A DNA stretch of 64,000 bases from Bacteroidota bacterium (GCA_031417395.1 JANOVM010000057.1:18078-82077), one strand, 5' to 3'. Shown: positions 2,431 to 57,930, counted from the first letter of the stretch. Notes: a model not told the origin generated them from the sequence alone. Translations and numbers: made by a program.

Positions 2431-3002
2431 GAGAAGTTCAGGGCCTTCCGATCCTGAATGATTTTTATCTTGTTGGAGGTACGGCACTCGCTTTGCGGTA
2501 TGGGCATCGAATTTCTGTTGATCTGGATTTTTTTACTGAGAAAGAATTTGATACGAGTTCTCTGATTGATACACTCAAAGAGAAGTTTTCTGTTCGTGTT
2601 TTGTCGCAAGCCAAAAACTCATTGACATTGGATCTTCGCTCTGTCAAAACGGATTTCATCAGACATAATTATCCCATATTAAAACCATTCGTAAAAGCAG
2701 ATGAAATTAAAATGGCTTCCGTTGAAGATATAGCAGCCATGAAACTCAATAGTACCATGAACCGCGGTGCCAAAAAGGATTTTTATGATATTTATGAATT
2801 GCTGAATCATTTCACATTACAGGAGCTGATTACTTTTTATAATTCCAAATATGATTTTTCCTCTCAACTGATCGTACTTAAAAGTCTGGTTTATTTCGAC
2901 GACGCTGAACAGGAACCGGACCCTGTTACAGTTAAGCCGGTATCATGGAGTTTGGTAAAGCAAAGGATTTCGGAGGAAGTAGGTTTATTCGCAAGAAATT
3001 AA
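2385..3002 (+). CDS. AbiEii/MenT-like nucleotidyltransferase (toxin of a type IV/VII TA or abortive-infection module)
   Basis: The N-terminal motif LVGGTALALRYGHRISVDLDFF is the GG-TAL...R.S.DLD nucleotidyltransferase signature of the AbiEii/DUF1814 family. The upstream frame is closed by a stop at 2370-2372, so the ATG at 2385 is the start. Confidence 0.65.
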   Translation: MLFFSAVSPEALELLREVQGLPILNDFYLVGGTALALRYGHRISVDLDFFTEKEFDTSSLIDTLKEKFSVRVLSQAKNSLTLDLRSVKTDFIRHNYPILKPFVKADEIKMASVEDIAAMKLNSTMNRGAKKDFYDIYELLNHFTLQELITFYNSKYDFSSQLIVLKSLVYFDDAEQEPDPVTVKPVSWSLVKQRISEEVGLFARN

Positions 3003-19090: not shown

Positions 19091-19195
19091 AATTATGAAA
19101 TCTTAATGTTAGAAGAAGAGGAAATTCTTTTGAATGAAGGAAAATATCATAATGGGAAGGGTTCTGTGATAAGATTTGTTGGAAGAAAAAAATAG
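19091..19195 (+). pseudogene. orphan duplicate of the 3' end of the methyltransferase gene (matches 12461-12568)
   Basis: About 94% nucleotide identity over ~105 bp to the last 35 codons of the 11957-12568 gene. It encodes ...[35 protein letters not shown] with no upstream gene body. Confidence 0.6.
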
Positions 19196-19256
19196 ATCAC
19201 TCTTAACAGCAATATTATTATATTTTTGTCTAACTTTCTCAAATCAATTTCCGCTT

Positions 19257-22083: not shown

Positions 22084-23628
22084 TTAATTAATGTTACATT
22101 CTTTATCCAGCACTTGTACAGTCCTTATATAAAATTCATGAGCTTCTTCCACTGTTTTGCCAATGCAAACAACTCCTAGTTTTCCATATTGTGACAATGC
22201 ACCAATCATGTGAAACATTACGCCGGTTTGTTTCGAACTATCGTATAGAATGTGATTGCAGATGGCAATGTCGATTAAATCTTGCGGTGTAAGTCCAATA
22301 TATTTTTCATTCACTAAATTATCTGAAGCAAAATAGCAGCGCTTTTCTCCGTTGGACATTTTATAAATTCCTTCCTTCCAGTTAAAATCGCCATCCGTTA
22401 AAAACTTAAGCATAATAAAAGGATGTGTAGTGCCGCCTTTTCGTAAATTAATTTCAATAGCATAATGTTTCCAGCCTACCGGTTGTTTAACCGATAAAAA
22501 GTCAATACTGAACCTGCCTAATACACCTAAGCGTTGCATTTCAAAGGAAATGGCTTGAGCCATCATTGCAATTTCTGTATTATATCTTATGTTGGCCGGA
22601 AAAGTAGCTCCAAGAAAGACTTGTCCGCTTTCGCCGCCCAGCAGTTGATCGTGTGTCGATATAATTTCAGGTTCGCCAAGCGGATTTATCCTGCATTGCA
22701 CGGAAGGTGATTCTTTGTATTCGCCTTCGATAAACTCTTCTACAATGCCACCCATGCTGGTAAACTTTTCAATAAATATCTCATAGCTTAATTGATTTGC
22801 GATAATTAATAAGTTACCGGGTAATTTTTTTAGAATTTCAGCAGCTAAATTATTTTGTGATCCGTCAACGATAGAATAATTAAATATGGCATTTCCTTCT
22901 CCGGAAAATCCGTCATTCATCTTTACAACTGCTTTGCGCAATATTGGATTGTTTATTTTTAATTGTGCCAGGGCAAGAGCGATATCGTTTTCGTTTTGCA
23001 GCGATTCAAAACCGACCGCTAATGGAATGTTTAATCTTTTAAATATTTCACGACTTCCTTTTTTTGTACCCAGATATAAAAGTTTGGGGTCGCACCCAAA
23101 AATTGGAATATTCAAAGCAAGCGAAAGTTGTTTTTCGTATTCAGTAACATTGAAAGAAGCCATGTGAGCCAGTTGGGGAAATTTAATGGCTTGTCTAATT
23201 CTTTTGATTAAGCGCGGACGTTCAAGAATTTTTTCGGTAAGGGATCTGGAAGATGCATCGTAGCAGCTCAAAATCGTTAACCGCTGGCGTGCATGATAAC
23301 CGGTTATGCCGGGCAATAGATGAAGGTAATAATCGATAATGCTGTTGTCTATCGGCACACTGGTAATGTAAATAACCTGCGTTCGAGGCATACGCAATAA
23401 CATAAGCATGCATAGCATTCTTTCTTCATAATGAAAAACACCTTTTATGGATTTTATAATTTCCTGGTCAAGCGTAAGGCTGGGAATAATAACTACTGTT
23501 TTTTCAGCCATGTCATCCAAAAAGATTTCATAGAAATGTTTTTTAAATCTTTCCTGAAGTAAATCAAAAGCTGAATTAGCCTGACTGAAATGATAATGAG
23601 TCATAGGAGTCGTATTAATTGTATCCAT
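22084..23628 (-). CDS. ATP-grasp superfamily protein, PGM1-like peptide ligase architecture (pre-ATP-grasp plus ATP-grasp)
   Basis: The N-terminal region VVIIPSLTLDQEII...HYEER resembles the pre-ATP-grasp domain of PGM1-type ligases. The central Gly-rich ATP-grasp-like stretch is VVKMNDGFSGEGNAIF...IEEFIEGE. Confidence 0.45.
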   Translation of the reverse strand: MDTINTTPMTHYHFSQANSAFDLLQERFKKHFYEIFLDDMAEKTVVIIPSLTLDQEIIKSIKGVFHYEERMLCMLMLLRMPRTQVIYITSVPIDNSIIDYYLHLLPGITGYHARQRLTILSCYDASSRSLTEKILERPRLIKRIRQAIKFPQLAHMASFNVTEYEKQLSLALNIPIFGCDPKLLYLGTKKGSREIFKRLNIPLAVGFESLQNENDIALALAQLKINNPILRKAVVKMNDGFSGEGNAIFNYSIVDGSQNNLAAEILKKLPGNLLIIANQLSYEIFIEKFTSMGGIVEEFIEGEYKESPSVQCRINPLGEPEIISTHDQLLGGESGQVFLGATFPANIRYNTEIAMMAQAISFEMQRLGVLGRFSIDFLSVKQPVGWKHYAIEINLRKGGTTHPFIMLKFLTDGDFNWKEGIYKMSNGEKRCYFASDNLVNEKYIGLTPQDLIDIAICNHILYDSSKQTGVMFHMIGALSQYGKLGVVCIGKTVEEAHEFYIRTVQVLDKECNIN

Positions 23629-40000: not shown

Positions 40001-40453
40001 TTAATTTTCGGCGGAAGGAATATCTAAGGAAAAATTCGACCGAAGAACAGAATCTAACTTTTCATAACTGGATTCTCCTTTGATTACATAACCGATTACT
40101 CCTTTTTTCCTTGCAAGTTCCATTATCCTTTCATTGTCAATGGAGGTAAACATGATAAAATCAGAATATGGACTTATCTCTTTAAGCTTCGTAAGTACTT
40201 CAAGACCGTCTTTGGAAGATGCTACGGTAGAATCTAAAAAGAAATCAAGTAAAATCAGGTTGGGAGTAGCTTTAGAAACGATTATATCCTTAATACATTC
40301 ATCTCCATTGTTAAAACCTTTTACGACAAGATGCGGGTATTTTCCAAAAAAATCAATAAGCATACTGCGCTCAAAAAGGTTGTCTTCAATAATGTAGACA
40401 GTACTAATTTTTTTAGGTTTGGGAACATTAAAAGATAGTTTAATCGGGTCCAT
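40001..40453 (-). CDS. single-domain response regulator (receiver/CheY-like)
   Basis: STVYIIEDNLFERSMLIDFF...PNLILLDFFLDS...GLEVLTKLKE has the receiver acidic pocket and phospho-acceptor Asp. The ORF track extends to 40516. The internal Met (MDPIKL) at 40453 fits the domain start better. Confidence 0.55.
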   Translation of the reverse strand: MDPIKLSFNVPKPKKISTVYIIEDNLFERSMLIDFFGKYPHLVVKGFNNGDECIKDIIVSKATPNLILLDFFLDSTVASSKDGLEVLTKLKEISPYSDFIMFTSIDNERIMELARKKGVIGYVIKGESSYEKLDSVLRSNFSLDIPSAEN

Positions 40454-40920
40454 TTTATTTTGAGAATTTAATAGTCGGGCAAAGATAAAAATTATATGGT
40501 ATGTTAAGTAAGTCAATTCGTTGAATCAAACAAAAGGCCTGCTCAAATAACACTTACATGTAGTGTTGAAAACCTTTTCAAATTTACATTTTAAAGGTAT
40601 TTATTTTTATCCGTAAATCAGGATTTTTGGATTTGCTTAATGTAGAGGGGATAAAAAAGCAATAAAAAATTATTTTCTATTCACCCAAAAATTTTAAAAC
40701 TCTGACAAAAAAAGCGCTTTTTCTTATTTAAAAAGTGCGTTTTTTTGATCCGATAATATTTAACCAATATTTAATGTACTTTTCTGTTGTTATTGATTAA
40801 ATTTAAAAATAGTTAATCTTAAAATATAACAGAATTCGGCTTTAGAAAATATGTTATAGATAACGAGTCCTCACGGTATAGTATCTAAGTTAAATATACA
40901 TAATAAAACCTTAATCCTTC

Positions 40921-43900
40921 ATGATTCGATTTATACAAAGTTTATTAGTTGTCATGTTTTTGTTTCTGTCTTCTTCAGTTGCACAGAACATTAAGATTAA
41001 TGAAATTTGCCCAAGTAATTACATTTCTTTCGAGGATTCCTATGACGAAAGGGGTGACTGGGTAGAATTTTACAATGCAGGAAATTCCAGTATTAATATG
41101 GCCGGAATGTATCTGACGGATAATTTCGCCAATCTCACAAAATTTCAAATTCCTGCTAACAATTCATCCGCTACCACAATAGCTTCTCACGATCATTTAA
41201 TTTTTTGGCTGGATGAAGAACAGTATAAAGGTCCGACACATACCAATTTCAAACTGAGCAATACCGGTGAACGTATTGCACTCGTGGCTTCCGATGGAGT
41301 TACTATAATCGATTCTATTTCCTTTGGTGCAATTACATATGATGTTACCCTTGGACGCACGACGGATGGCAGTTCCTCTTGGAGCTACTTTCCTGTACCT
41401 ACTCCCGACAATAATAATTCAGGCGGGGGTTATTTAGAGATAACAGGTAAAGCGAATTTTGTTCAGTTCGCCGGATTTTATCCTTCAACCATACAGGTTG
41501 AACTTACTTATCCGGATCCGACAGCTTCAATCTACTATTCAATAAATGGAAATGAACCATCACCCACGCGCGGAATATTGTATACCGGTCCCATTACCGT
41601 AAATACAACTACTGCTATGCGAGCGCGTGTATTTAAAGCAAATTATATTCCCGGAGAAGTAACAACAAGTACCTATTTCATCAACAGACCTCACGATCTG
41701 CCCATACTTTCAGTGGTAACTGATTCATTAAATCTATGGGATGAGAATACGGGAATTTATTGTTTTGGTGTAGACGATTACGATCACTCTTATCCTTACA
41801 GCGGGGCTAATTTTTGGGAGGACTGGAAAAAACCTGCACACATTGAATTATTCGAAACATCGGGAGGAGAAGTAATCAGCCAGAATTTAAAACTTTCCAT
41901 TAGCGGCAATACCAGCCGCGCCTATGCACAAAAGTCGCTCAATTTTGAATCAGAGGATGCACTCGGGAAGAAAAATATTTCTTACCAGATTTTTCCTCAG
42001 TTGCCAATTACAGAGTATAAGTCTTTTAAAGTGCGCAACGGAGGATCTGACTGGAGCAGTACAGGTATAAGGGATGCTTTTAACCACACACTTCTCGAAG
42101 GAGCAATGGATGTTGATCACCAGTCTTTCCGGCCCGTTATTCTGTATATTAACGGAGCGTACTGGGGGTTAATTCAAATGACAGAAAAGATCGATGAAGA
42201 TTATCTGAATGCGCATTTTCCGGCTATAGATAAAGACAGTGTGGATTTATTATTCAGTAATGCACAAGTTGCCAATGGTGATGCCAATAGTTACAATGCT
42301 ATGATTAACTACATAGCAAATAATTCCATGACGCAGCAATCAAACTATAACTTCATAAAGAACCAAATAGACATACCGGAATACATCAATTATTATGAAT
42401 CCCGAATTTACTATGCTTCTACAGACTGGCCATATAAAAATCTTTATTTCTGGCGCCCCAAAGACCAGAGCATGAAATGGAGATGGATTATGTGGGATAC
42501 TGACCGGTCAACCTTACTTACAACAAATGCTAATCATCCCTGCAATGTAAACCACAATACTCTTGCCTGGGCAACTACCAGCAGCTCAAACCCCCCATGG
42601 TCTCAGTTCCTAATTAATAATTTACTGCTAAATTCAGAATTCAAATCGCAATTCATTACGCAATTCGCTCATCATATTAATTTTACCTTTTGTCCGAGCC
42701 GAACGGATTCTGTACTGAATGTTTTTAGAAACAGACTCCAGAATGAAATGCCTGCACACATAGCAAGATGGGAGTATTCTAACGATACGCTCGACTATTA
42801 TACTGCAGGTTATTACCATAGTCTTAACCAATGGAATAAGGAAGTTGACACGATTAAATTATTTTATGACAACAGGGCAAATTACATGCGTAAATTCATC
42901 ATGCAACAATTCTCAATCGGAGATACTTCTCATCTATCGTTAGTGAAAAATCCCCCTCAAGGCGGAATTGTTGTTATTGACACATTCAAAGTTCCTTCCA
43001 ATCCTTGCCGTCTGGTTTATTTTGACGGATATCCGGTTACACTAAAAGCAATAGCAAATCCGGGTTATGTTTTTGCAGGATGGACATCAGGCGGAGGAAA
43101 TATTTTACCCTTTAACTGGGTTCCAAACGGAGACACGACTGTAACGGCTTATTTCACTCCCTCATCTGCTACTCAACCCAATCTTGCTTCATCGAATTAT
43201 TCAGCTACAATCACGGGTTGTACAGACATTGATTTAAGCTGGTTTTCCGGAAATGGTTCCTCAAGATTAGTTATAGCCAGAGCAGCTTCGGCTGTTAATG
43301 CTTTACCTCTGGATCTTCAGGGATACGTTGCTGATGCCATTTTTGGTAATGGTTCAAATCTTGGAGGAGGTAACTTTGTAGTTTATTCCGGAAGTGGTAA
43401 TTCCTGTACTGTTACCGGACTTACCGCCGGAGAAACATATTATTTTGCCATAATAGAATTTAATGGAAGCTCCAATACCAGCGATTATTATACTACAAGT
43501 TACCTAACAGGAAATACGATAGCCGCATCTTTTACCGCTTATACAGCAGCTATTTCAAATACAATTTGCCAGGGATCCTCTACAGTAATAACGGCGGGGG
43601 GAGGAGTAACTTACCAATGGTCACCTTCTACCGGTTTATCATCTTTAACAGGAGCTACAGTAACCGCTAGTCCAAACAATACCCTTACCTATACTGTTAT
43701 TGCTACGGATGGCAATGGATGTCAGGCCATATCCAAAATTAAAATCACAGTGAACCCCCGGCCAACAGTTACGCTTAATAATTTTTCAGATGTATGTTTA
43801 TCATCTAATCAGGTTACTTTAACCGGCGGCTCTCCGGCGGGCGGCGTGTATTCTGGAACGAACGTTTCTTCAGGTTCATTTAACATATCAGCTGCAGGTG

Positions 43901-45378
43901 TCGGGAATCATACAATTAAATATCGTTACACAAACACTTATGGCTGCAGCGATTCTGCTTCTGCACAGCTAAAAGTACTCGCACTTCCAAACGTAGCATT
44001 AAGTGCATTTAACAGCGTGTGTTTAAACTCGTCTGCATTTTTATTAAACGGCGGAACACCATCAGGAGGCACATACAGCGGACCGGGAATTAGCGGAGGA
44101 TCATTTAATCCTGCAACTGCCGGTGCAGGGTTACATACAGTCACTTATTCTGTTACAAATAGTTCCGGATGTTCCGGTCAATCTACGTCAACCATTGTAG
44201 TAAATGCTAATCCTAATGTTTCTTTAAATGCATATAGCAATATTTGTCTGGGTGCTTCACCGATTGTATTAAGCGGCGGAACACCATCAGGAGGCACATA
44301 CAGCGGACCGGGAATTAGCGGAGGATCGTTTAATCCTGCAACTGCCGGTGCAGGGTCACATACAGTCACTTATTCTGTTACTAATAGTTCCGGATGTTCC
44401 GGTCAATCTACGTCAACCATTTTAGTAAATGCTAATCCTAATGTTTCTTTAAATGCATTTAGCAATATTTGTCTGAGTGCTTCACCGATTGTATTAAGCG
44501 GCGGAACACCATCAGGAGGCACATACAGCGGACAGGGAATTAGCGGAGGGTCGTTTAATCCTGCAGCTGCCGGTGCAGGGTCACATACAGTCACCTATTC
44601 TGTAACAAATAGTTCCGGATGTTCCGGTCAATCTACCTCAACCATATTGGTAGATGCTATTCCGAATGTTGCATTAAATGCATTTAGCAGTACTTGCCTG
44701 AATGCTTCACCAATTGTATTAAGCGGCGGAACACCATCAGGAGGAAGCTACACAGGACCGGGAGTAAGTTCCGGTTCTTTCGATCCTGCAACAGCAGGAG
44801 TGGGAACACACACTGTCACGTATTCTGTTACGAATAGTTCCGGATGCTCCGGTCAGTCGGCTTCTACTATTTTAGTAAATGTTAATCCAACTATTTCACT
44901 GGGTATTGATACGACGATTTGTGATTTCAATTCCATTCAACTCGATGCGGGAAGCGGATTAAGTTCTTACCTGTGGTCAACAGGTGAAACTTCGCAAAGC
45001 ATAATTGCTGATAGCGCAGGCCATGGATTGGGGACAGTATCCTATAGTGTAACCGGCACCAATGCTTTTGGATGCACAGCGAATGATGACATCAATGTAA
45101 CGTTTGATTTATGTTCTTATATTAATAGCGCACCCCTTCAATCCTCTTTATTAGTATTTCCTAATCCGTTTAGCGATGAAATTACCATTCTGATATCAGA
45201 AAATAATTTCACAATAAATATGTTTGATGTACTGGGCAATATCGTATTCAGCAAGCGGACGAATTCAACAAGTGCCATCATCCAACCTGTTGTTTCGGCA
45301 GGAGTTTATTTCCTCCAGGTTGTGACGGCAAATGGTAGTAAGACGATTAAAGTCGTTAAGACAAATGGAGTAAATTGA
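40921..45378 (+). CDS. giant secreted CotH kinase-like protein with N-terminal lamin-tail domain, chitobiase-C-like domain, tandem SprB-type Ig-like repeats and T9SS CTD
   Basis: The lamin-tail domain is KINEICPSNY...DWVEFYNAG...GMYLTD. CotH-like block: ...VRNGGSDWSSTGIRDAF...ILYINGAYWGLIQMTEKIDEDYL. There are five 75-77-aa repeats (GGTPSGGTYSGPGISGGSFNPATAGAGSHTVTYSVTNSSGCSG). The C-terminus LVFPNPFSDEITILI...GVYFLQVV is a T9SS CTD. Confidence 0.8.
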   Translation: MIRFIQSLLVVMFLFLSSSVAQNIKINEICPSNYISFEDSYDERGDWVEFYNAGNSSINMAGMYLTDNFANLTKFQIPANNSSATTIASHDHLIFWLDEEQYKGPTHTNFKLSNTGERIALVASDGVTIIDSISFGAITYDVTLGRTTDGSSSWSYFPVPTPDNNNSGGGYLEITGKANFVQFAGFYPSTIQVELTYPDPTASIYYSINGNEPSPTRGILYTGPITVNTTTAMRARVFKANYIPGEVTTSTYFINRPHDLPILSVVTDSLNLWDENTGIYCFGVDDYDHSYPYSGANFWEDWKKPAHIELFETSGGEVISQNLKLSISGNTSRAYAQKSLNFESEDALGKKNISYQIFPQLPITEYKSFKVRNGGSDWSSTGIRDAFNHTLLEGAMDVDHQSFRPVILYINGAYWGLIQMTEKIDEDYLNAHFPAIDKDSVDLLFSNAQVANGDANSYNAMINYIANNSMTQQSNYNFIKNQIDIPEYINYYESRIYYASTDWPYKNLYFWRPKDQSMKWRWIMWDTDRSTLLTTNANHPCNVNHNTLAWATTSSSNPPWSQFLINNLLLNSEFKSQFITQFAHHINFTFCPSRTDSVLNVFRNRLQNEMPAHIARWEYSNDTLDYYTAGYYHSLNQWNKEVDTIKLFYDNRANYMRKFIMQQFSIGDTSHLSLVKNPPQGGIVVIDTFKVPSNPCRLVYFDGYPVTLKAIANPGYVFAGWTSGGGNILPFNWVPNGDTTVTAYFTPSSATQPNLASSNYSATITGCTDIDLSWFSGNGSSRLVIARAASAVNALPLDLQGYVADAIFGNGSNLGGGNFVVYSGSGNSCTVTGLTAGETYYFAIIEFNGSSNTSDYYTTSYLTGNTIAASFTAYTAAISNTICQGSSTVITAGGGVTYQWSPSTGLSSLTGATVTASPNNTLTYTVIATDGNGCQAISKIKITVNPRPTVTLNNFSDVCLSSNQVTLTGGSPAGGVYSGTNVSSGSFNISAAGVGNHTIKYRYTNTYGCSDSASAQLKVLALPNVALSAFNSVCLNSSAFLLNGGTPSGGTYSGPGISGGSFNPATAGAGLHTVTYSVTNSSGCSGQSTSTIVVNANPNVSLNAYSNICLGASPIVLSGGTPSGGTYSGPGISGGSFNPATAGAGSHTVTYSVTNSSGCSGQSTSTILVNANPNVSLNAFSNICLSASPIVLSGGTPSGGTYSGQGISGGSFNPAAAGAGSHTVTYSVTNSSGCSGQSTSTILVDAIPNVALNAFSSTCLNASPIVLSGGTPSGGSYTGPGVSSGSFDPATAGVGTHTVTYSVTNSSGCSGQSASTILVNVNPTISLGIDTTICDFNSIQLDAGSGLSSYLWSTGETSQSIIADSAGHGLGTVSYSVTGTNAFGCTANDDINVTFDLCSYINSAPLQSSLLVFPNPFSDEITILISENNFTINMFDVLGNIVFSKRTNSTSAIIQPVVSAGVYFLQVVTANGSKTIKVVKTNGVN
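43753..44883. repeat. five tandem ~225-231-bp coding repeats inside the CotH-like gene (units 3 and 4 roughly 95% identical at DNA level)
   Basis: Unit starts are at 43753, 43984, 44209, 44434 and 44659. Comparing unit 3 with unit 4 by eye shows about 10-12 mismatches per 225 bp. Confidence 0.8.
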
Positions 45379-45732
45379 CTTTAAAAGATTTATTTTTTAA
45401 TATATATAGTTCTATTTTTGCCTTAAATAATCAGCCCTTGCATATTTTAAAGTCAAATAGTTGAATGGTGTGCTTAAATTCTTATATAAGCCCCGGGTCC
45501 GTCATTAATTGGGGCATTTAACTAAGTTTTAACTTCATTTTTTTGTTTTGTTATAAAATTATTTTTCAAATACTTGACAATGATCAAATCATATAGTAAG
45601 TTTGATTAAGAAATTTTTAGTTTAGTATTAATTTAAGAAACCTTCTGTTATTTAATTATGTCGTAATTTGTTTTTACATTTTTAATTACACCAAAGACCA
45701 AAGGTACAAGAGGTCATAAAAAACTAATCACA

Positions 45733-45969
45733 ATGGAAAAGAATCCAATAAAATCATTTGAAAGTTTGAAAGGTCAGGAAGTAGATGGTCAAAATGTAAA
45801 GGGTGGTTTCAGCTTAATTCGCAACGAAGATAATGCCGGCCACTACCATGTAGTTAATTTTGATCGTGCCATGCACAATGCTCTTGATGATGCAAGACAT
45901 CATGGATTTAAGAAGGCAACTTTAACGGATAAAGTTAGCGGCAAATCCACAACATTTATTATTGATTAA
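45733..45969 (+). CDS. double-glycine leader peptide precursor (bacteriocin-like/secreted peptide), copy 1
   Basis: The 25-aa leader MEKNPIKSFESLKGQEVDGQNVKGG ends in GG. A 53-aa Cys-free core follows. A C39-peptidase ABC exporter gene lies downstream. Confidence 0.5.
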   Translation: MEKNPIKSFESLKGQEVDGQNVKGGFSLIRNEDNAGHYHVVNFDRAMHNALDDARHHGFKKATLTDKVSGKSTTFIID

Positions 45970-46294
45970 GTTCCCCCTTAGTAAAAGCCATTCTTACTTC
46001 ATTTTATTTTAAAATATTGATAATCAAACAATTAAAATCATTATTGAACGATTTTATATTGAAATAGTGCATGTTTAAAGAAATTTTAGAAAAACAATAA
46101 TTTCAAAGATGAAACAACAATTTTTTGAAAACACTTGCTAGTTAATAATTTTAATATTAGATTTGATATAAGATTATGGAACACTAACGTTCTTTAATTG
46201 AAAGATTTTATTTTTAATAGTTAAATAGTTAATCAATTTTTTTTCAAAAACCAAGGACTTAAGGTACAAGAGGTCAACAAAAAACAAAACCACA

Positions 46295-46531
46295 ATGGAA
46301 ACAAACCCAAAAAGATCTATCGACAGCTTGAAAGAACAAGAAGTAGATGGCCAAAATGTTAAAGGCGGATTCGTATTAACCAGCGAAAGCAATGGTACCG
46401 GTTATTACACAGCGGATAGCCCGGATGACAAAAATGCAGCTTTAAATGATGCAAAAATGAAGCATTATAAATATGCGGTAATTACTAACAGAACTACCGG
46501 TGTAGCTAAAACGTTTACTATTGCATATTAA
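46295..46531 (+). CDS. double-glycine leader peptide precursor, copy 2 (paralog of 45733-45969)
   Basis: The leader METNPKRSIDSLKEQEVDGQNVKGG is nearly identical to copy 1 and the core is divergent. The 5' UTR motif AAGGTACAAGAGGTCA is shared at the same distance from the ATG. Confidence 0.5.
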   Translation: METNPKRSIDSLKEQEVDGQNVKGGFVLTSESNGTGYYTADSPDDKNAALNDAKMKHYKYAVITNRTTGVAKTFTIAY

Positions 46532-46608
46532 TTCTTAGACCTCATTTTGTAGTTAGATTATTCTATAATAATTGACGCAAATGGAGGTAAAAAACAAATT
46601 TAGTAATT

Positions 46609-46649
46609 AAAGCGGGGTTGGTTCATATAACCAACCCCGCTTTTTTTTT
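46609..46649 (+). terminator. strong intrinsic terminator after the second leader-peptide gene
   Basis: aaagcggggttggtt-catat-aaccaaccccgcttt followed by a T9 run. Confidence 0.7.
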
Positions 46650-46755
46650 AATACTAACTTAAAAGTTGTATTATTGAATTTTAAATACAATTATTCTGAA
46701 ATTTTTTAAAAATAAAAAGCGCATTTTCTTTCCTGCTATTCAGGGGGCTGATGCT

Positions 46756-48930
46756 ATGGATTGTGGTCCGACCAGCCTGCGAATCATTGCCCGTTTCTAT
46801 GGCCGAAATCACTCGTTGGAATCGTTACGAAAGAAAAGTTACACCAATCGTGAAGGCTCCAGTTTGTCACAGTTAGCAGCTGCAGCGGAGTCTATTGGAT
46901 TTCGTTCACTTAGTGCAAAAATTGATTTTAAACAGCTTACGGAAGATGCTCCTCTTCCCTGTATTGTGCATTGGAATCAAAATCACTTTGTAGTAGTATA
47001 CAATGTAAAAAACAATAAGGTTTATGTATCCGACCCGGCTTTGGGATTGGTTTCTTATTCCAAAGAAGAGTTTATTGAACATTGGATAGGAGTCGGTGCA
47101 GGTGTTGACAAAAAGGAAGGTATCGTTTTGATGCTGGAGACAACTGCTGAGTTTTTTACGATGGAAGAGGATAAAGGTCCAAAGAAAAAAGGGCTTTCAA
47201 TAATGCTTCCGTACTTGTTTCCTCATAAACGCTATTTAGTACAAATATTATTAGGCCTGCTTGCCGGAAGTATATTATCACTTATTTTTCCTTTCCTCAC
47301 CCAGGCTGTTGTTGATATCGGTATTCGAAACAATGATCTTAATTTTATTTATCTGGTACTCATCGCCCAGTTATTTCTATTCTTCGGGCGTACTGCCATT
47401 GATGTAATCAGGGGTTGGCTGCTTATTCATTTGAGTACCCGGATTAGCATTTCTCTGGTATCAGATTTTTTCACTAAACTAATGCGTCTCCCAATTTCTT
47501 ATTTCGATTCGAAAATGAGTGGAGATATTTTACAACGTATCTCAGACAATAGACGTATTGAACACTTACTTACGGGAAGCTCTTTAAGTGTTTTATTCTC
47601 CTTGATTAATCTGATCTTTTTTGGTTTTATTCTGGCATTTTATGATATCCGGATTTTCCTCGTTTTTGTAGCAGGCAGCGCAATGTATGTAGGCTGGATT
47701 ACTTTTTTCCTTAAGAGGCGAGCAGTTATGGATTACCGCTCTTTTGACCTGCAATCAAAAAATCAGGACAAGGTTTTGGAATTGGTAAATGGAATGCAGG
47801 AAATAAAACTTAACAATGCTGAGCGGTATAAACGATGGGGCTGGGAGCATTTACAAGCTCGTTTATTCAAATTAAATTTAAAACAATTGGCGCTCAATCA
47901 AAGTCAGACTTATGGAGCCGGTGCCATAAATGAAGTAAAAAACATTCTGATATCATTTTTGTCGGCAAGCCTCGTAATAAAAGGCGAGATTACGGTGGGT
48001 GTAATGATGTCCATATCCTATATCATAGGCCAGCTCAACGGACCGGTTAGTGAGTTGGTTAGCTTTATGCATGACATACAGGATGCCCGTTTGAGTATGG
48101 AGCGTATGGCAGAAATTCATAACAGGGAAGATGAAGAACCCCAGGGAGCGGAAAAGATTAATGAATTACCAAAGGAGGGCTCGTTGTTTCTGGATAAAGT
48201 ATCCTTTCAATATTCAGGTCCTGAATCCAGCTGGGTAATTCGTAATATGAATTTAACAATACCCTACAATAAAATTACAGCCATTGTTGGAAGCAGTGGC
48301 AGTGGTAAAACCACTTTATTGAAGCTTTTGCTGAAATTTTATGAACCCGTAAGAGGAGAAATAAGATTAAATACCTATAATTTAAATAATATTTCACAAT
48401 CTGCATGGCGTGAAAAATGTGGTGTGGTAATGCAGGAAGGTTTTATTTTTAATGACACTATTGCTCACAATATAGCAGTAGGAACAGATAATATTAACCA
48501 GGAAAGACTGCAGGAGGCTGTGGAGATTGCAAACATCAGGGAATTCATTGAAGATTTACCTTTAGGTTACAATACAAAAATTGGACAGAATGGTGTAGGA
48601 ATTTCCGGCGGACAAAAACAAAGAATACTTATTGCACGAGCGGTTTATAAAAACCCTGATTATCTTTTATTCGATGAAGCAACTTCTGCTTTAGATGCGC
48701 GGAATGAAAAAATAATAATGGAAAATTTTTCAAGGTGGTTTCAGGGAAAAACTGTTATCGTTGTGGCTCACCGCTTAAGTACGGTTCGTAATGCAGATAA
48801 AATAGTTGTGTTGGAAAAAGGAAGGGTGTCAGAAGAGGGAACACATGAAGAATTAATTGCAATGAAAGGACTTTATTTTGGTCTTGTAAGAAATCAACTG
48901 GATCTTGATAAACTGGATGAAAAAGAATAG
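46756..48930 (+). CDS. peptidase C39 domain-containing ABC transporter (PCAT; bacteriocin/peptide cleavage-export ATPase)
   Basis: N-terminal C39 catalytic context MDCGPTSL...HWNQNHFVVVY. Six-TM ABC exporter core. Walker A GSSGSGKTT, ABC signature ISGGQKQR and Walker B LLFDEATSALD. Confidence 0.85.
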   Translation: MDCGPTSLRIIARFYGRNHSLESLRKKSYTNREGSSLSQLAAAAESIGFRSLSAKIDFKQLTEDAPLPCIVHWNQNHFVVVYNVKNNKVYVSDPALGLVSYSKEEFIEHWIGVGAGVDKKEGIVLMLETTAEFFTMEEDKGPKKKGLSIMLPYLFPHKRYLVQILLGLLAGSILSLIFPFLTQAVVDIGIRNNDLNFIYLVLIAQLFLFFGRTAIDVIRGWLLIHLSTRISISLVSDFFTKLMRLPISYFDSKMSGDILQRISDNRRIEHLLTGSSLSVLFSLINLIFFGFILAFYDIRIFLVFVAGSAMYVGWITFFLKRRAVMDYRSFDLQSKNQDKVLELVNGMQEIKLNNAERYKRWGWEHLQARLFKLNLKQLALNQSQTYGAGAINEVKNILISFLSASLVIKGEITVGVMMSISYIIGQLNGPVSELVSFMHDIQDARLSMERMAEIHNREDEEPQGAEKINELPKEGSLFLDKVSFQYSGPESSWVIRNMNLTIPYNKITAIVGSSGSGKTTLLKLLLKFYEPVRGEIRLNTYNLNNISQSAWREKCGVVMQEGFIFNDTIAHNIAVGTDNINQERLQEAVEIANIREFIEDLPLGYNTKIGQNGVGISGGQKQRILIARAVYKNPDYLLFDEATSALDARNEKIIMENFSRWFQGKTVIVVAHRLSTVRNADKIVVLEKGRVSEEGTHEELIAMKGLYFGLVRNQLDLDKLDEKE

Positions 48931-48933
48931 CAA

Positions 48934-50232
48934 ATGGCTAAGTTAAAAGAAGATATTGGCATTCGTAGTGAAGAGGTTCAGGACATCATGAGCAGGGTTC
49001 CTAACAGGCTCATCAGTCATGGACTTTCCGGAATTTTTCTTCTGATATTATTTGGCATGTTTTTATCCTGGTTTATTAAATATCCTGAAATAATAAGAGG
49101 AAAATTTATTCTAACCACTACCGTAGAACCGGTCAAGTTAGTTAGCCAGTCGAGCGGTGTTATCTCAAAGTTATATGTAAAGGATGGCGATTTTGCCGAG
49201 GCAGGAAAAGTCCTTGCCGAAATTGAAAACCCTTTATCGGCCGGTGCAGCTAATTACCTTCAGAACTATTTAGTAAAATTAGAAAAAGCTATTGAACGGA
49301 ATGCTGACGAATTACCCTTGCCTGATACTATGTTGGTTTCCTTGGGAGATTTGCAGAGTGTAGTGAATTCATTAATGAAAGAACTGCTTGTTTACAACAT
49401 TTCATCTACGTTAAAAATGGACGATGCGGAGATAAACAGCATAAAGAATAAAATTACGAACCAAAATGAAATGATTGCAGTAAATGAAAGAATAATTTCA
49501 ATTACTAAGAAGGATGTTCAAGATTCGAAATTGAAACTGGAAGCGGATGAAAAACTTTACAAAGAGTCATTTATTTCTAAGATGGAGTTTCTTCAATCGG
49601 AATCTGCCTTTAGGTCGAAAGAGTTGTCCCTGGAACAATTGTATCAAAGCCGGTTAAGTCAAAAGAATGTTTTGGATGCACTTGTATTGCAATTTAAACA
49701 GGCAGAATATAGTAAGTATAATAAAGGAAGAACCAACCTCGATGCTATAAAGGGCCTGAGCAAAGACATACGAACTTATGTTTACGGTTGGCAGCAAAAA
49801 TACAATCTTATTGCAATAAAGGCAGGAAGAGTGAATTTTTTGCAGCGCATCCAGGCCGGAAATTTTCTTAAGGGCGGGGAAGAACTTATGGCAATTACTG
49901 AACCCGGAGGAACGTATATGGGAGTGGCAACCGTTCCTGCCGGTGGATATGGAAAAGTTAAAGTCGGACAGGATGTAAATATTCTCCTTCAGAATTATCC
50001 CTACTATGAATACGGCATACTGAAGGGAAGGGTCAGTAACATTGCGCTATTCCCTAATACAAATGAGTACAGAGTTGAAATTTCAATGCCTAACGGCATG
50101 ATGTCTTCCCAGAAACAATTATTGAACTATACTCCGGAAATGGGTGGAGATGCAGAAATTATCACCGAAGACAGAAGAATTTTAGAGCGATTGTTTGATT
50201 CGATTATTAAAGCATTAAAAAGAAAACAATAA
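48934..50232 (+). CDS. HlyD-family membrane fusion/secretion protein
   Basis: Single N-terminal TM helix. Long coiled-coil region. The C-terminal beta-domain has ...VATVPAGGYGKVKVGQDVNILLQNYP. It is 3 bp downstream of the PCAT gene. Confidence 0.75.
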   Translation: MAKLKEDIGIRSEEVQDIMSRVPNRLISHGLSGIFLLILFGMFLSWFIKYPEIIRGKFILTTTVEPVKLVSQSSGVISKLYVKDGDFAEAGKVLAEIENPLSAGAANYLQNYLVKLEKAIERNADELPLPDTMLVSLGDLQSVVNSLMKELLVYNISSTLKMDDAEINSIKNKITNQNEMIAVNERIISITKKDVQDSKLKLEADEKLYKESFISKMEFLQSESAFRSKELSLEQLYQSRLSQKNVLDALVLQFKQAEYSKYNKGRTNLDAIKGLSKDIRTYVYGWQQKYNLIAIKAGRVNFLQRIQAGNFLKGGEELMAITEPGGTYMGVATVPAGGYGKVKVGQDVNILLQNYPYYEYGILKGRVSNIALFPNTNEYRVEISMPNGMMSSQKQLLNYTPEMGGDAEIITEDRRILERLFDSIIKALKRKQ

Positions 50233-50243
50233 AATTTTATAAA

Positions 50244-51038
50244 ATGCCTATCAGGAAAATAATTTCACTAATAGATTTTACGGGAGTTTCTCAATTGGCA
50301 TTAGAACATACTGCAATAATTGCCCGTCAAAGCATTTGTCTTGTTACGTTACTTCACATAGCCGACGAAAGTAAAAGAAAAGATGAGAAAGAATTAAAAA
50401 ACCAGATTAGAGAGTTTGCCTCTCATCTGGAAGATGAGGGCGTTTCTTTTGCCATTCAAATTGATTATGGTAATTTTTTCGAAATAATAGCGAATAGTAT
50501 AGAAAAACTTGATTGCGATTTAATTGTAATCGGAACCCACGGTATCAAAGGAATAAAGCAAAACTTTGTAAGTTCAAATATTGTTAAATTAATTAGGTTA
50601 ATTTCTACACCGGCATTAATTATTCAGGGTCATAGTCAAACTCCGCAGGAAGGTTATTTAAATATGTTAGTACCCATGCTTGAAACAGCTGATCCAAAAA
50701 TTCTGGAAAAACCTGTTGAACAATTTTCTTCCCTTTTTAAATCAAACCTTCACCTCCTGGGTTTTTATGTAAAGGAAATGGAACAAACTTTTACCCAAAA
50801 AACAAACGATCAGGCTGCAAGGTTCAGGACTATGGGTTTTAATACACATGTTCAAATGGAAGAAACAAGTGTGTATACAAGCAGTTATTCAAGATCAATT
50901 ATTCAGTATGCCGACATTGAAGATATTGAAGTGCTCGTTTTAGTTTTCCATGAATCGGAAGGAATTAAAAACTTTGACAATGCCGACATGGAAAATATTT
51001 TACTGAATAGGTTAGGAAAGCCTGTGCTTTGTATTTAA
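50244..51038 (+). CDS. universal stress protein (tandem UspA-like domains)
   Basis: LIVIGTHGIKGIKQNFVSSNIVKLI matches the Usp G-x2-G-x9-G(S/T) ATP-binding motif. A weaker second domain is present. Confidence 0.55.
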   Translation: MPIRKIISLIDFTGVSQLALEHTAIIARQSICLVTLLHIADESKRKDEKELKNQIREFASHLEDEGVSFAIQIDYGNFFEIIANSIEKLDCDLIVIGTHGIKGIKQNFVSSNIVKLIRLISTPALIIQGHSQTPQEGYLNMLVPMLETADPKILEKPVEQFSSLFKSNLHLLGFYVKEMEQTFTQKTNDQAARFRTMGFNTHVQMEETSVYTSSYSRSIIQYADIEDIEVLVLVFHESEGIKNFDNADMENILLNRLGKPVLCI

Positions 51039-54175: not shown

Positions 54176-56359
54176 ATGCGTACTACTACTGCATTACTTT
54201 GCGTCTTATTTTCTCTGCCCGTTATAGGAAGGCCACCAATTACTTCTAAAATAAAAATTGAACAGGCTATCAAAACAGAATCAAACACAGAATCCTTGGT
54301 TGCTCCGGATATAAATCCTGTACAGCAGCCATGGAGCGGCCCCTATGGCGGCATACCACCTTTCGATAAAGTTGAAATTTCTTATTTCAAGCCTGCTCTT
54401 GAAGCAGCGATGAGTGAGAACTTAAAAGAAATCGAAGCAATAGCAACAAATACTGCTCCGCCAACATTTGAAAATACCATTAAAGCAATGGAGCGTTCCG
54501 GTAAAACCATGGATAGGGTTCAAACGCTTTTTGGAATATGGAGTTCTAATATGAATGTTCCGGAATTTCAGGAAATAGAGACAGAGATGTCTCCCAAGCT
54601 TGCGGAATTCTCTGATAAGATAACTCAGAATGAAAAATTATTCAGAAGAATAGAAACAGTTTATAACTCAACCGAAAAGAAAACCTTAAATGACGAGCAA
54701 CAGCGATTAGTTTGGTTATACTATACAAATTTCGTAAGGGCAGGAGCTAAACTCGATGCAACAACAAAAGAGAAACTTTCCGGGATCAATCAGGAACTTG
54801 CCGGGCTTTTTACAAAATTCAGTCAGAACTTAATGTCAGACGAATCAGAATTATATGTTGAGATAAAAACAGAAGCAGAACTTTCCGGATTGCCCCAATC
54901 TTTAAAAGACGCAGCTTCCAATGCTGCTACACAGAGGAAACTCAACGGTTCATGGGTAATAACAAATACACGTTCTTCCGTTGATCCTTTTTTGACCTAT
55001 TCCGATAATAGAAATCTTCGCGAGAAAGTTTGGAAGATGTTTATCAGTCGTGGTGACAATGGGGGAGAACATGATAATAATTCTATTATTACAACCATAC
55101 TTAGACTTCGTGCCGATAGAGCAAAACTTCTCGGCTTTGCAAGCCATGCTCACTGGCGTGTAGAAAACACAATGGCAAAAACTCCGGAAAAAGCCATAGA
55201 ACTTATGGAAAGTGTCTGGCCTCCTGCTATTGAAAGAGTAAAAGAAGAAGTAAAGAGTATGCAGGAAATGGCAAATAAAGAAAAAGCAAATATTACCATT
55301 GAGCCCTGGGATTATCGGTATTATGCAGAGAAAGTAAGAAAAGATCGCTACGATCTTGATCAAAATGAAGTGAAGCAATATTTGCAGCTTGAGAAATTAC
55401 GCGAAGGAATGTTTTGGGTTGCGGGTGAATTATTCAATTTCAGTTTTACCCCTGTTAAAGATGTTACTGTTTATCATCCTGATGTTCGTGTATGGCAGGT
55501 AAAAGATAAAACATCGGGAAAATTAATCGGCCTTTGGTATTTCGATGCTTATGCCAGAAAAGGAAAGCGTTCCGGTGCATGGATGAATGCTTATAGAAAT
55601 CAGCAGCGTGTGGACAATGAAATTACAACGATCGTTTCTAACAATTCAAATTTTATTAAAGGCAAAGAAGGTGAGCCTGTTTTAATTTCCTGGGATGATG
55701 CTACAACATTGTTTCATGAATTTGGACATGCATTACACGGACTTGCTTCCAATGTTGTATATCCTACCCTTTCAGGAACAAATGTGGTAAGAGATTATGT
55801 TGAATTTCCTTCACAGCTTCTAGAACATTGGCTGTCGACACCGGAAGTACTTTCGCAATTTGCTATCCATTATAAGACAGGTCAGGCTATTCCAAAATCA
55901 CTTGTGGAGAGAATCGAAAAGGCATCTAAATTCAATAAAGGTTTTACTACTACGGAATATCTTTCAAGTGCCCTGGTAGATATGAAAATACACTTGTCAA
56001 AAGCTGAAATCATTGATCCGAAAGCGTTCGAGCGCGAAACTCTTGAAAAATTAGGAATGCCCAAAGAGCTTGTCATGCGTCATCGTTTACCTCAGTTCGC
56101 TCATATTTTTAGTTCGGATGATTATTCGGCGGGCTATTACAGTTATTTATGGTCTGATGTATTGACGGCAGATGCTTATGAAGCATTTACAGAAGGCGGT
56201 GGTCCGTATAGCAAAACTGTTGCAGATCGTTTAATTAAATACATTTTTTCAGTCGGGAATACCATTGACCCACAGGATGGATATAAGAAATTCAAAGGAA
56301 GAGATGCAAGCAGCGATGCTTTAATGCGTAAACGTGGTTTTCCTGTAATTAAAAAATAA
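54176..56359 (+). CDS. dcp: M3 family zinc metallopeptidase (peptidyl-dipeptidase Dcp / oligopeptidase A-like)
   Basis: HEFGHALHG HExxH motif in the M3 context. Size 727 aa. N-terminal signal peptide. Confidence 0.8.
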   Translation: MRTTTALLCVLFSLPVIGRPPITSKIKIEQAIKTESNTESLVAPDINPVQQPWSGPYGGIPPFDKVEISYFKPALEAAMSENLKEIEAIATNTAPPTFENTIKAMERSGKTMDRVQTLFGIWSSNMNVPEFQEIETEMSPKLAEFSDKITQNEKLFRRIETVYNSTEKKTLNDEQQRLVWLYYTNFVRAGAKLDATTKEKLSGINQELAGLFTKFSQNLMSDESELYVEIKTEAELSGLPQSLKDAASNAATQRKLNGSWVITNTRSSVDPFLTYSDNRNLREKVWKMFISRGDNGGEHDNNSIITTILRLRADRAKLLGFASHAHWRVENTMAKTPEKAIELMESVWPPAIERVKEEVKSMQEMANKEKANITIEPWDYRYYAEKVRKDRYDLDQNEVKQYLQLEKLREGMFWVAGELFNFSFTPVKDVTVYHPDVRVWQVKDKTSGKLIGLWYFDAYARKGKRSGAWMNAYRNQQRVDNEITTIVSNNSNFIKGKEGEPVLISWDDATTLFHEFGHALHGLASNVVYPTLSGTNVVRDYVEFPSQLLEHWLSTPEVLSQFAIHYKTGQAIPKSLVERIEKASKFNKGFTTTEYLSSALVDMKIHLSKAEIIDPKAFERETLEKLGMPKELVMRHRLPQFAHIFSSDDYSAGYYSYLWSDVLTADAYEAFTEGGGPYSKTVADRLIKYIFSVGNTIDPQDGYKKFKGRDASSDALMRKRGFPVIKK

Positions 56360-56410
56360 AAATAAATTAAAGGGCTCCGCTGAGACGGATATAGGTATTC
56401 CCAATAATAA

Positions 56411-56467
56411 AACCAACGCTGCTAATATTGATTTTAAAATCTTTATTAGCAGCGTTGGTTTTTTATT
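56411..56467 (+). terminator. intrinsic terminator after the M3 peptidase gene
   Basis: aaaccaacgctgctaat...attagcagcgttggttt followed by a T-run. Confidence 0.65.
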
Positions 56468-56625
56468 TAGCAGTTAATAAGAACCAATATCTTAAGCCTG
56501 ATTCTTTAGCTAAAACTAATTAACATTTATGCTCGTTAGACTGCTTATAAGTGAAATAATAAGTAAGCTTGTTGTAATAAACTATATCCTTATATTGTGT
56601 TATTGTTAAAAATTAAAAACGAGCA

Positions 56626-57930
56626 ATGAAATCAGCTAAAGTTGAATTAGACAACAAGATTTATGAAATCCCGGTGATAACCGGAACAGAAAATGAAATG
56701 GCAATTGATATTTCCAATCTGCGCAGTCAGACCGGATACATAACGTTGGATACAGGTTATAAAAATACAGGAGCAACACAGAGTGCCATTACTTTTCTGG
56801 ATGGAGAAAAGGGGATTTTAAGATACAGGGGATATCCTATTGAGCAATTGGCTGATCAATCAACTTTTCTGGAGGTAGCATATCTTCTTATCTATGGTGA
56901 ATTGCCAACGAAAGATGAATTAGAAAAATTCATTACCGGTATAACACACCACAGCCTGATTCATGAAGACATGAAAAAATTTTACGAAGGGTTTCCCGGC
57001 AAGGCACATCCTATGGGTGTACTGGCATCAATGATGTGTGCTTTGTCAACTTTTTATCCTGAAGCTCAAAAGACGGATATGAGTAAACTGGAGATTGATC
57101 TCACCATTCAGCGGTTAATCGCTAAATGTTCTACTATTGCAGCCTGGTCTTATAAAAAATCTCAGGGTTTTCCGACGATGTATCCGAAGAATAAGTTGAG
57201 CTATTGTGAGAATTTTCTTTACATGATGTTTGCTCAGCCTACTGAAGAATTTCCATTAAACGATACAGTAAAGAAAGCGCTAGACATATTACTAATTCTC
57301 CACGCCGACCATGAGCAGAATTGTTCAACCTCTACGGTAAGGCTTGCAGGATCATCTCAGGCCAGTTTATATGCTGCAATATCTTCGGGAATATGTGCAT
57401 TATGGGGGCCTTCTCACGGAGGAGCAAATCAGGCCGTGATAGAAATGCTTGAAATGATTCATCAGGGAGGAAGCAGCGTTGACTCTTGGGTTGAAAAAGC
57501 AAAGGATAAAAACAGCAAATTTCGTCTGATGGGTTTTGGTCACCGCGTTTATAAAAATTTTGATCCGCGGGCAAAAATAATTAAGAAAGCATGCGATGAT
57601 GTTTTAAAAGAGCTGGGCATTCAGGATCCTTTACTTGATATTGCCAAATCGTTGGAGGAAGTTGCTTTAACGGATAATTATTTCATAGAAAAAAAATTGT
57701 ATCCTAACGTTGACTTCTACTCCGGAATCCTGTATCGTGCTATAGGTATTCCTACAGATATGTTCACCGTTATGTTTGCCATGGGAAGAATGCCGGGCTG
57801 GATTGCTCAATGGAAAGAAATGAGAGAAGGTGGGGAGCCAATTGCCAGACCGAGACAAATTTATACGGGATATACTCAGCGACCTTATGTGAAGATTAAT
57901 AACAGGAAGCCGGTTGGTGTAAGCATCTAG
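56626..57930 (+). CDS. gltA: citrate synthase
   Basis: The citrate synthase signature GFGHRVYKNFDPRA. N-terminal ...FLDGEKGILRYRGYPIEQLA parallels E. coli GltA. Confidence 0.9.
   Translation: MKSAKVELDNKIYEIPVITGTENEMAIDISNLRSQTGYITLDTGYKNTGATQSAITFLDGEKGILRYRGYPIEQLADQSTFLEVAYLLIYGELPTKDELEKFITGITHHSLIHEDMKKFYEGFPGKAHPMGVLASMMCALSTFYPEAQKTDMSKLEIDLTIQRLIAKCSTIAAWSYKKSQGFPTMYPKNKLSYCENFLYMMFAQPTEEFPLNDTVKKALDILLILHADHEQNCSTSTVRLAGSSQASLYAAISSGICALWGPSHGGANQAVIEMLEMIHQGGSSVDSWVEKAKDKNSKFRLMGFGHRVYKNFDPRAKIIKKACDDVLKELGIQDPLLDIAKSLEEVALTDNYFIEKKLYPNVDFYSGILYRAIGIPTDMFTVMFAMGRMPGWIAQWKEMREGGEPIARPRQIYTGYTQRPYVKINNRKPVGVSI

Follow-up and report, generated by a model that had tools for sequence, protein, structure and literature searches.

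Here we describe an export cassette in a 64,000-nucleotide (nt) stretch of the genome of an uncultured Bacteroidota bacterium (GCA_031417395.1 JANOVM010000057.1:18078-82077; hereafter the window, with positions counted from its first letter). In this cassette two paralogous small genes, pepA and pepB, precede the genes for a peptidase-containing ATP-binding cassette transporter (PCAT), a HlyD-family membrane-fusion protein and a Usp stress protein. Comparative sequence analysis makes it probable that the unmodified PepA and PepB precursors are cleaved after a KGG motif and exported by the PCAT together with HlyD, and the assignment of the two precursors as leader-tagged cargo of the adjacent exporter is well supported by comparison with related loci. 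The cargo family, its exporter and the leader code that appears to join them are laid out below, followed by the role that the mature proteins might play, for which we can offer a more tentative reading.

Two leader-tagged precursors and their family

Each of the two peptide genes encodes a precursor of 78 amino acids (aa). In pepA (45733-45969, +) a 25-aa leader with a KGG end (45733-45807) is followed by a 53-aa core (45808-45966), and in its paralogue pepB (46295-46531, +) the leader and core occupy 46295-46369 and 46370-46528, respectively. A preliminary description of this DNA had reported two such open reading frames (ORFs), with almost identical 25-aa leaders ending in GG and divergent, Cys-free cores of 53 aa, and both claims hold. 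Over their full length the two precursors are 45% identical (BLASTP, E 2e-21); residues 1-25 are almost identical, with the consensus MExNPxxSxxSLKxQEVDGQNVKGG, and the cores, 53 aa each, are about one-third identical and contain no Cys.

pepA and pepB are real coding genes under purifying selection. Between pepA and its orthologue in a related metagenome-assembled genome (MAG; GCA_043756425.1, 'Bacteroidota bacterium GL115_UP_metabinner_3') there are 16 synonymous and 5 non-synonymous differences, giving a ratio of non-synonymous to synonymous rates (dN/dS) of 0.06, and within the core alone 10 synonymous differences stand against 1 non-synonymous. Comparisons with more distant paralogues yield dN/dS values of about 0.1-0.3 (up to 0.27). 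The pepB orthologue in locus L005 is 97% identical. Synonymous divergence between the window and L005 is uneven along the locus: dS is 0.48 for the pepA orthologues (window 45733-45969, L005 4633-4869) and 0.06 for the pepB orthologues (window 46295-46531, L005 5216-5452), with 97% identity across the intergenic and PCAT start region downstream of pepB. This unevenness suggests that the pepA segment has been recombined or replaced.

The family is small. A word-seeded search of 5.8 billion proteins identified seven clusters, and a profile built from the two peptides and their homologues, run exhaustively as a hidden Markov model (HMM) search over 1.84 billion representatives, gave seven matches at E <= 0.001. 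One of these seven, P0012, a 1266-aa repeat protein, was rejected as spurious because its score arises only from the sum of 10 weak repeats. In the same profile search, P0011, P0013 and P0014 were found to have mainly the leader in common with pepA and pepB and to carry other cores, unrelated in P0013 and remotely similar, with Cys, in P0011 and P0014. Among 185,579 species-representative genomes the family was present only in the related MAG, at three loci, and no relatives were found in viral contigs. Searches of the peptides against Pfam, NCBIfam, PHROGs and PADLOC returned nothing meaningful. A weak NCBIfam match of pepA to GrcA2/GrcA3 (E 0.03; 14 bits, the cut-off being 145) was rejected as chance, because it is based on a 'KVSGK' hairpin that is not retained in B-type or distant members. 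Also, no paper was found in the literature on this peptide family or on the PCAT-HlyD-Usp cassette.

The arrangement beside the exporter recurs in closely related genomes. The window is essentially conspecific with GCA_031387945.1, in which the PCAT is 100% identical, and the related MAG has the same pepA-pepB-PCAT order, the DNA of the two being 97% identical across the terminator and the start of the PCAT. Homologues with GG leaders beside a PCAT, whose absence from other genomes would have spoken against the preliminary description, are therefore present in a second genome. Each genome carries several paralogues, at least three in the window's species and at least five in the related MAG. 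Additional copies are found in other settings: L009 and L010 hold an orphan B'-A' pair ahead of a Laminin_G/type IX secretion system (T9SS) gene, and single A-type copies lie ahead of a DUF2851 gene in L012 (related MAG) and L001 (the window's own species), preceded by an OMP decarboxylase gene wherever upstream DNA is present. No neighbouring gene is common to the family loci that were read, orphans included, so the comparison offers no candidate immunity or partner gene.

Using AlphaFold2 with the family alignment, the leader of PepA was predicted to be disordered and its core to adopt a beta-beta-alpha-beta-beta topology, with a predicted local distance difference test score (pLDDT) of about 85 over the core. 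The PepB core modelled alone has the same topology (pLDDT 90.2; predicted template modelling score 0.68). Structure prediction of the cores had been among the checks proposed in the preliminary description, and it returns one compact fold for both, which are predicted to be beta-hairpin/helix/beta-hairpin domains. A PDB sequence profile search with the peptides turned up nothing but noise from low-complexity or ankyrin sequences. The cores are hydrophilic and near-neutral, with grand average of hydropathy values of -0.60 and -0.50 and isoelectric points of 7.2 and 8.2, and these properties, together with the predicted fold and the purifying selection, make them unlike the hydrophobic or cationic class II bacteriocins that form pores and unlike short pheromones. 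In A-type cores His is abundant (4-5 residues) and a GHYHV stretch is conserved; these His residues are not kept in B-type or distant members.

The exporter cassette and its leader code

The PCAT gene (46678-48930, +; 724 aa when read from the ATG at 46756) encodes a C39 peptidase fused to an ABC exporter. Pfam searches identified Peptidase_C39 (E 1e-32, 113 bits against a cut-off of 22), ABC_membrane (96.6 bits) and ABC_tran (105.9 bits), and the NCBIfam models TIGR03796 and TIGR01193, which describe bacteriocin/NHLP-type exporters, match below their curated cut-offs. The C39 domain had been said to retain its Cys and the His context; the alignment with LahT150, ComA and PCAT1 bears this out and adds the third catalytic residue, with Cys in DCGPTSL, His in NHFVVV and Asp in VSDPA. 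The ATPase motifs are likewise intact in the translation (Walker A, GSSGSGKTT; signature, ISGGQKQR; Walker B, LLFDEATSALD; H-loop, VVAHRL). Starting 3 nt after the PCAT stop, the spacing first described, is the gene for a 432-aa HlyD-family membrane-fusion (adaptor) protein (48934-50232, +), which matches HlyD_3 at 53 bits (cut-off 22.2) and TIGR01843 (type_I_hlyD) at E 2e-34, below the cut-off of that model. HlyD adjoins the PCAT in every related locus that was read. The preliminary description did not include the gene that follows 11 nt after the HlyD stop, which encodes a 264-aa Usp protein (50244-51038, +; Usp E 2e-16) and completes the cassette as its conserved third gene. Its length fits two Usp domains, and the Pfam match covers only residues 3-127.

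PCAT homologues number in the thousands in Bacteroidota, and eight further PCAT loci were read, six at 67-83% identity and two at 63%. The order PCAT-HlyD-Usp was found in all six loci of the closer group (L014, L015, L016, L018, L038 and L039), so that Usp follows HlyD in seven of seven loci, the window included, with a PCAT at least 67% identical. Upstream of the PCAT in five of the six lie one to six small genes with the same leader signature and unrelated cores; at L038 the upstream cargo could not be read because the contig starts too close to the PCAT. The cores of this Usp clade comprise a 22-24-aa Asn/Gly-rich peptide, a 60-77-aa Pro/Gly-rich sequence, a 70-aa 'GPGDG...' protein and the 53-aa cores of the window, and these types are mutually unrelated. 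The two loci at 63% identity (L017, from Crocinitomix algicola, and L040) are of the type that makes RiPPs (peptides that the ribosome synthesizes and that are modified after translation); they have the order PCAT-HlyD-OEP without Usp, and they carry modification enzymes, an ATP-grasp protein in L017 and a radical SAM (rSAM)/SPASM protein in L040. A search of related genomes for variable cores beside a conserved leader had been suggested at the outset, and five cassettes with one signature and unrelated cores are what was found. A conserved leader, a conserved exporter and freely exchanged cores together form the comparative signature of leader-directed cargo, and this pattern is the chief ground for the architecture put forward in the preliminary description.

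The leader signature was counted over 19 clade leaders, with positions numbered back from the cleavage site. Gly occupies -1 and -2 in 19/19, Lys -3 in 15/19, Val or Ile -4 in 16/19 (17/19 if Leu is counted), Gly -7 in 18/19, Asp or Glu -8 in 15/19, Val or Ile -9 in 18/19, Leu or Phe -14 in 19/19, Asp or Glu -16 in 17/19 and Ile or Leu -17 in 18/19. Both window peptides end their leaders in V-K-G-G and so have the GG (elsewhere also GA or GS) and the hydrophobic residue at -4 by which canonical double-glycine leaders are defined. The published recognition motif is Leu(-12)-x3-Glu(-8)-Leu(-7) (PMC6363468); here the corresponding L-x3-E-V is shifted outward by two residues, to -14/-10/-9.

The start of the PCAT gene deserves separate comment. 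The ATG-initiated ORF begins only two residues before the catalytic Cys, and the 26 in-frame codons upstream of it, from 46678, directly after a TGA, encode ILNTIILKFFKNKKRIFFPAIQGADA. It corresponds by homology to genuine N-termini in relatives, for example P0022 (MLKTVISRFFHKKDFFFPTVIAADTMDCGP) and P0019 (LKFFINKKDLFFPSIQSADTMDCGP), and contains the conserved N-terminal strand of the PCAT, KNKKRIFFPAIQGADA. The ATT at 46678 aligns with the ATG of P0022 and the CTG at 46696 with the TTG start of P0019, and the true start in the window is probably such a near-cognate codon. The same truncation affects other members of the group: in 28 of the 120 closest PCAT homologues the gene call begins at a conserved internal Met that precedes the catalytic Cys by two residues. 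In the two of these homologues that were checked (L016 and L039) an in-frame upstream TTG start restores the full N-terminus, from which it follows that the truncated calls are mostly annotation artefacts. The regions encoding the N-terminal strand are window 46678-46758, L014 5941-6003, L016 4947-5003 and L039 3127-3219. Judged from these alignments, truncation of PCATs by gene callers is systematic, the true starts being TTG or non-canonical codons.

Control elements and the surrounding region

Both peptide genes are preceded by a conserved motif in the 5' untranslated region (UTR). The pepA copy, ACCAAAGACCAAAGGTACAAGAGGTCA (45690-45716, +), ends 16 nt before the ATG, and the pepB copy (46250-46276, +) ends 18 nt before it. 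The 16-mer AAGGTACAAGAGGTCA within it has exactly two copies in the 64 kb (45701-45716 and 46261-46276), where chance would give 0.01. A shared 5'UTR block had been noticed before, and the conserved stretch proves to be longer than was noted: ACCAAnGACnnAAGGTACAAGAGGTCA, spanning 45690-45716 and 46250-46276, adds a 5' extension, ACCAAnGACnn. The motif ACCAAnGACnnAAGGTnnAAGAGGT is found 16-18 nt ahead of the start codon in every family member, orphan loci included (L001 9957-9981; L012 30-54). When metagenomes were scanned with the UTR motif, one more family member (L033, identical to P0007) and one unrelated gene, in L022, were recovered; the remaining matches look like chance. In L022, a metagenome contig, the same motif lies with the same spacing (3236-3259) before the TTG start of a gene for a 375-aa secreted-looking protein, and L014 has a variant of the motif before its unrelated cargo genes (upstream of 4311 and 4861). 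The 5'UTR folded no better than shuffled sequences and formed no stable hairpin, and an Rfam search of the 5'UTR and terminator region gave nothing near a gathering score. After pepB there is an intrinsic terminator (46609-46643, or 46609-46652 in its wider delimitation, +) with a 15-bp stem, a 5-nt loop and a run of nine T residues. Its folding energy of -25.5 kcal/mol (z = -7.4) justifies the term strong that was first applied to it, and it is identical in the related MAG.

No modification enzyme (rSAM, ATP-grasp, LanM or cyclodehydratase) was found in the cassette by Pfam scanning of the neighbourhood, and no conserved small membrane-protein ORF that might confer immunity lies beside pepA, pepB or the orphan copies, the neighbours of which vary by locus; both results agree with the earlier statement that immunity and modification genes were not obvious. 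The nearest ATP-grasp gene is 22 kb from the cassette (22084-23628, -); it is an IQCH-like/PGM1_C gene beside a PhyH dioxygenase gene, with no evident tie to the cassette. There is no histidine kinase gene near the cassette. A lone receiver-domain gene (40001-40516, -) is located 5 kb upstream and is also present in the related MAG. Directly upstream of the cassette, 40921-45378 (+) encodes an LTD-CotH-Ig-repeat protein of 1485 aa that carries a C-terminal T9SS sorting domain and near-identical repeats of about 75 aa around 43900-44600; the distant PCAT cluster of Crocinitomix (L017) likewise has a CotH/LTD T9SS protein on its downstream side. On the other strand, downstream of the cassette, are SOUL and thioredoxin-like genes.

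Genes for TPR-adenylate/guanylate cyclases flank PCAT-HlyD-Usp in L014 (1-1343) and L018 (4907-6766), and in the window a Reg_prop-Y_Y_Y-cyclase gene (15479-18910) and a TPR protein gene (19176-21212) are found about 27 kb upstream. Some Usp proteins bind nucleotides, and the flanking cyclases may hint at cyclic-nucleotide regulation or may be coincidence. A second PCAT/HlyD pair was suspected at 54176-57930 and rejected, the genes there being those of an M3 peptidase and of citrate synthase. The window also contains a gene for a nucleotidyltransferase toxin of the AbiEii type (2385-3002, +), with no evident tie to the cassette. The window as a whole is a T9SS-rich region of a Bacteroidota chromosome with a uniform GC content of 0.32-0.42, and its base composition carries no island signature.

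Mechanism, possible roles and significance

These features can be assembled into a pathway. A promoter ahead of each peptide gene, together with the shared 5'UTR element, would give high expression of the peptides, and the strong terminator after pepB would leave the PCAT-HlyD-Usp operon to be expressed separately, probably more weakly. The C39 domain would bind the 25-aa leader through its conserved positions (I/L-17, L-14, V/I-9, D/E-8, G-7, V/I-4, K-3 and GG) and cut after KGG, the ABC domains would carry the 53-aa core through the inner membrane in unfolded form, and HlyD would bridge to an outer-membrane channel encoded elsewhere. Once outside the cytoplasm the core would fold as a small soluble beta-beta-alpha-beta-beta domain. 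Orphan family members, whose leader and 5'UTR are alike, would leave through this exporter as well, and Usp would presumably have a part in the cassette as well. PCATs are reported to act on proteins as well as peptides, in both processing and export (PMC6959990). Cargo of the size predicted here has a precedent among transporters of this type. PCAT1 has a cargo of about 90 aa.

Several observations weigh against export by the adjacent PCAT. At -7 and -12, where canonical leaders are hydrophobic, this leader has Gly and a polar residue, respectively. It also matched no curated leader HMM, whether bacteriocin-type (including TIGR01847), NHLP, Nif11 or Bacteroidetes GG (TIGR04149), in scans of NCBIfam to E 10 and of Pfam to E 0.1, at which HMMER filters may drop very weak short matches; the comparison with bacteriocin-type and NHLP/Nif11 families that the preliminary description had called for was thus negative. 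No TolC/OEP gene was found among the Pfam-matching ORFs of at least 120 aa in the window, and the outer-membrane factor may be encoded elsewhere in the genome. Some family members are orphans, away from any PCAT. Two further points concern the transporter itself: none of the 26 codons for its N-terminal strand is ATG, GTG or TTG, and six residues before the catalytic Cys it has Gly in place of the conserved Gln proposed to form the oxyanion hole, with a Gln one residue earlier, at -7. Taken together, these last two points could mean that the exporter is defective or decaying, that the peptides go unprocessed and that the arrangement is a relic. We consider this very improbable, since the upstream codons form an open frame whose protein sequence is conserved in homologues with proper ATG or TTG starts, the same arrangement exists in a second MAG at 97% identity, and the peptides, like every ATPase motif, are intact and subject to purifying selection. 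The missing Gln is better read as a trait of the sub-clade than as a lesion, because position -6 is Ser or Ala in the nearest PCAT relatives, and among these P0022 and P0024, which have ATG starts, also lack it. Furthermore, in the LahT150 co-crystal the Gln is 4.3 Å from the oxyanion and its role has been questioned (PMC6363468), so that cleavage of the leader is still to be expected, if with less certainty than was first implied.

If the precursors are exported, the role of the mature proteins is a separate matter. Our best guess, which we hold tentatively and with somewhat less than even confidence, is interbacterial antagonism by an atypical microcin-like small protein. It is favoured because the cargo turns over completely between related cassettes and because the genes form multi-copy arrays. 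Against it stand the missing immunity gene, the hydrophilic and near-neutral cores and the conservation, rather than diversification, of orthologous cores. Some Bacteroidales GG-leader toxins rely on target variation instead of immunity proteins. The lack of an immunity gene would suit a set of secreted or periplasmic proteins with another role, such as stress protection, metal or ligand binding or a matrix or surface function, carried by a stress-linked (Usp) cassette and possibly delivered to the periplasm only. The cores, predicted to be globular, hydrophilic and near-neutral, the His and GHYHV of the A-type and the presence of Usp after HlyD, where the two more distant loci have OEP, are all consistent with such a role, but B-type or distant members do not share the His residues, and the complete replacement of cargo between related cassettes is hard to square with housekeeping; we regard it as rather unlikely. 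Less probable still, in our judgement, is that the mature 53-aa proteins are quorum-sensing or developmental signals with a receptor encoded elsewhere, the Usp and the cyclase or response-regulator genes tying export to physiological state. PCATs export pheromones as well as bacteriocins (PMC7018657, PMC6363468), and a signalling role could draw on the receiver-domain gene upstream in both the window and the related MAG, the cyclase genes of L014, L018 and the window, the strong purifying selection on orthologous cores and, again, the missing immunity gene. However, no histidine kinase or receptor gene is adjacent, and the receiver gene is 5 kb off, on the other strand and behind an unrelated T9SS protein. 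The number of paralogues per genome, with wholly different cargo in related cassettes, would be unusual for a dedicated signal-receptor pair, and the predicted folded domain of 53 aa is far larger than known GG-leader pheromones. No immunity, modification or sensor gene lies nearby that would point to a bacteriocin, a signal or some other role, and antagonism is the reading that we tentatively prefer.

Among known systems, the closest in organization are the class II microcin or Gram-negative double-glycine bacteriocin exporters, such as that of colicin V (CvaC-CvaA-CvaB-TolC), and the cyanobacterial C39-ABC and HlyD clusters (PMC3140520), which likewise have a small unmodified GG-leader precursor. 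In these systems, as here, a PCAT with Cys, His and Asp in its C39 domain has the HlyD adaptor immediately downstream, the outer-membrane channel can be unlinked and the precursor genes are often in tandem; in encoding small unmodified GG-leader precursors beside a PCAT, here with a 53-aa Cys-free core, pepA and pepB resemble class II. Unlike those systems, the window cassette has no immunity gene; its core is hydrophilic, near-neutral and predicted to be compact and alpha/beta, not a hydrophobic Gly-rich peptide; its leader has Gly at -7 and the L-x3-E-V displaced to -14/-10/-9; and Usp is the conserved third gene of the operon. Pfam, NCBIfam and PDB profile searches revealed no sequence similarity to a described microcin or bacteriocin. 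The best PDB matches to the C39 domain, 6mpz (E 4e-20) and 4ry2 (E 7e-18), lead to PCAT1-CtA of Clostridium thermocellum and LahT of Lachnospiraceae, with which the catalytic Cys, His and Asp align and in which the cargo can be protein-sized and is exported unfolded. Those two are Gram-positive systems without an adaptor, with canonical leaders that are hydrophobic at -4, -7 and -12, and their oxyanion Gln stands six residues before Cys, where the window PCAT has Gly and its Gln one residue earlier. The RiPP clusters of L017 and L040 come from the same phylum and have the same PCAT-HlyD order, with PCATs 63% identical. They include modification enzymes and OEP/TolC, whereas the clade of the window has no modification enzyme, has Usp at the place where OEP follows HlyD and carries arrays of unmodified cargo. 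ComC/BlpC-type pheromones are accompanied by an adjacent histidine kinase and response regulator and are short, unstructured peptides; here there is no kinase, the lone receiver-domain gene is 5 kb upstream on the opposite strand, and the 53-aa mature product is predicted to be folded.

The kind of system is therefore textbook, and what is new is the cargo family, which is without sequence or fold relatives, together with the shifted leader register, the position of Usp after HlyD and a PCAT that starts non-canonically and has lost the Gln. A bolder synthesis, which we put forward as speculation and consider doubtful as a whole, would make PCAT-HlyD-Usp a Bacteroidota-specific export pathway, separate from the classical exporters of microcins and RiPPs, with its own leader code (G-7, D/E-8, V/I-9, L-14), a C39 domain working without the canonical Gln and a Usp regulator at the place of OEP, dedicated to small proteins that fold after export. 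On such a view pepA and pepB would found a new family of secreted 53-aa alpha/beta mini-proteins that are neither pore-forming bacteriocins nor short pheromones.

To our knowledge, PCAT or type-I-like secretion has barely been studied experimentally in Bacteroidota, and the findings presented here add an uncharacterised cargo family to the repertoire of such systems in this phylum, an incremental but useful step. They also flag the conserved Usp partner and a systematic problem in the gene-calling of PCATs. The leader signature of the clade can be used to mine for cargo genes, including orphans far from any transporter. If the 53-aa cores are active, they would be unusually soluble, folded and Cys-free exported mini-proteins, and the leader and exporter could be put to use as a system for tagging small proteins for secretion in Bacteroidota.

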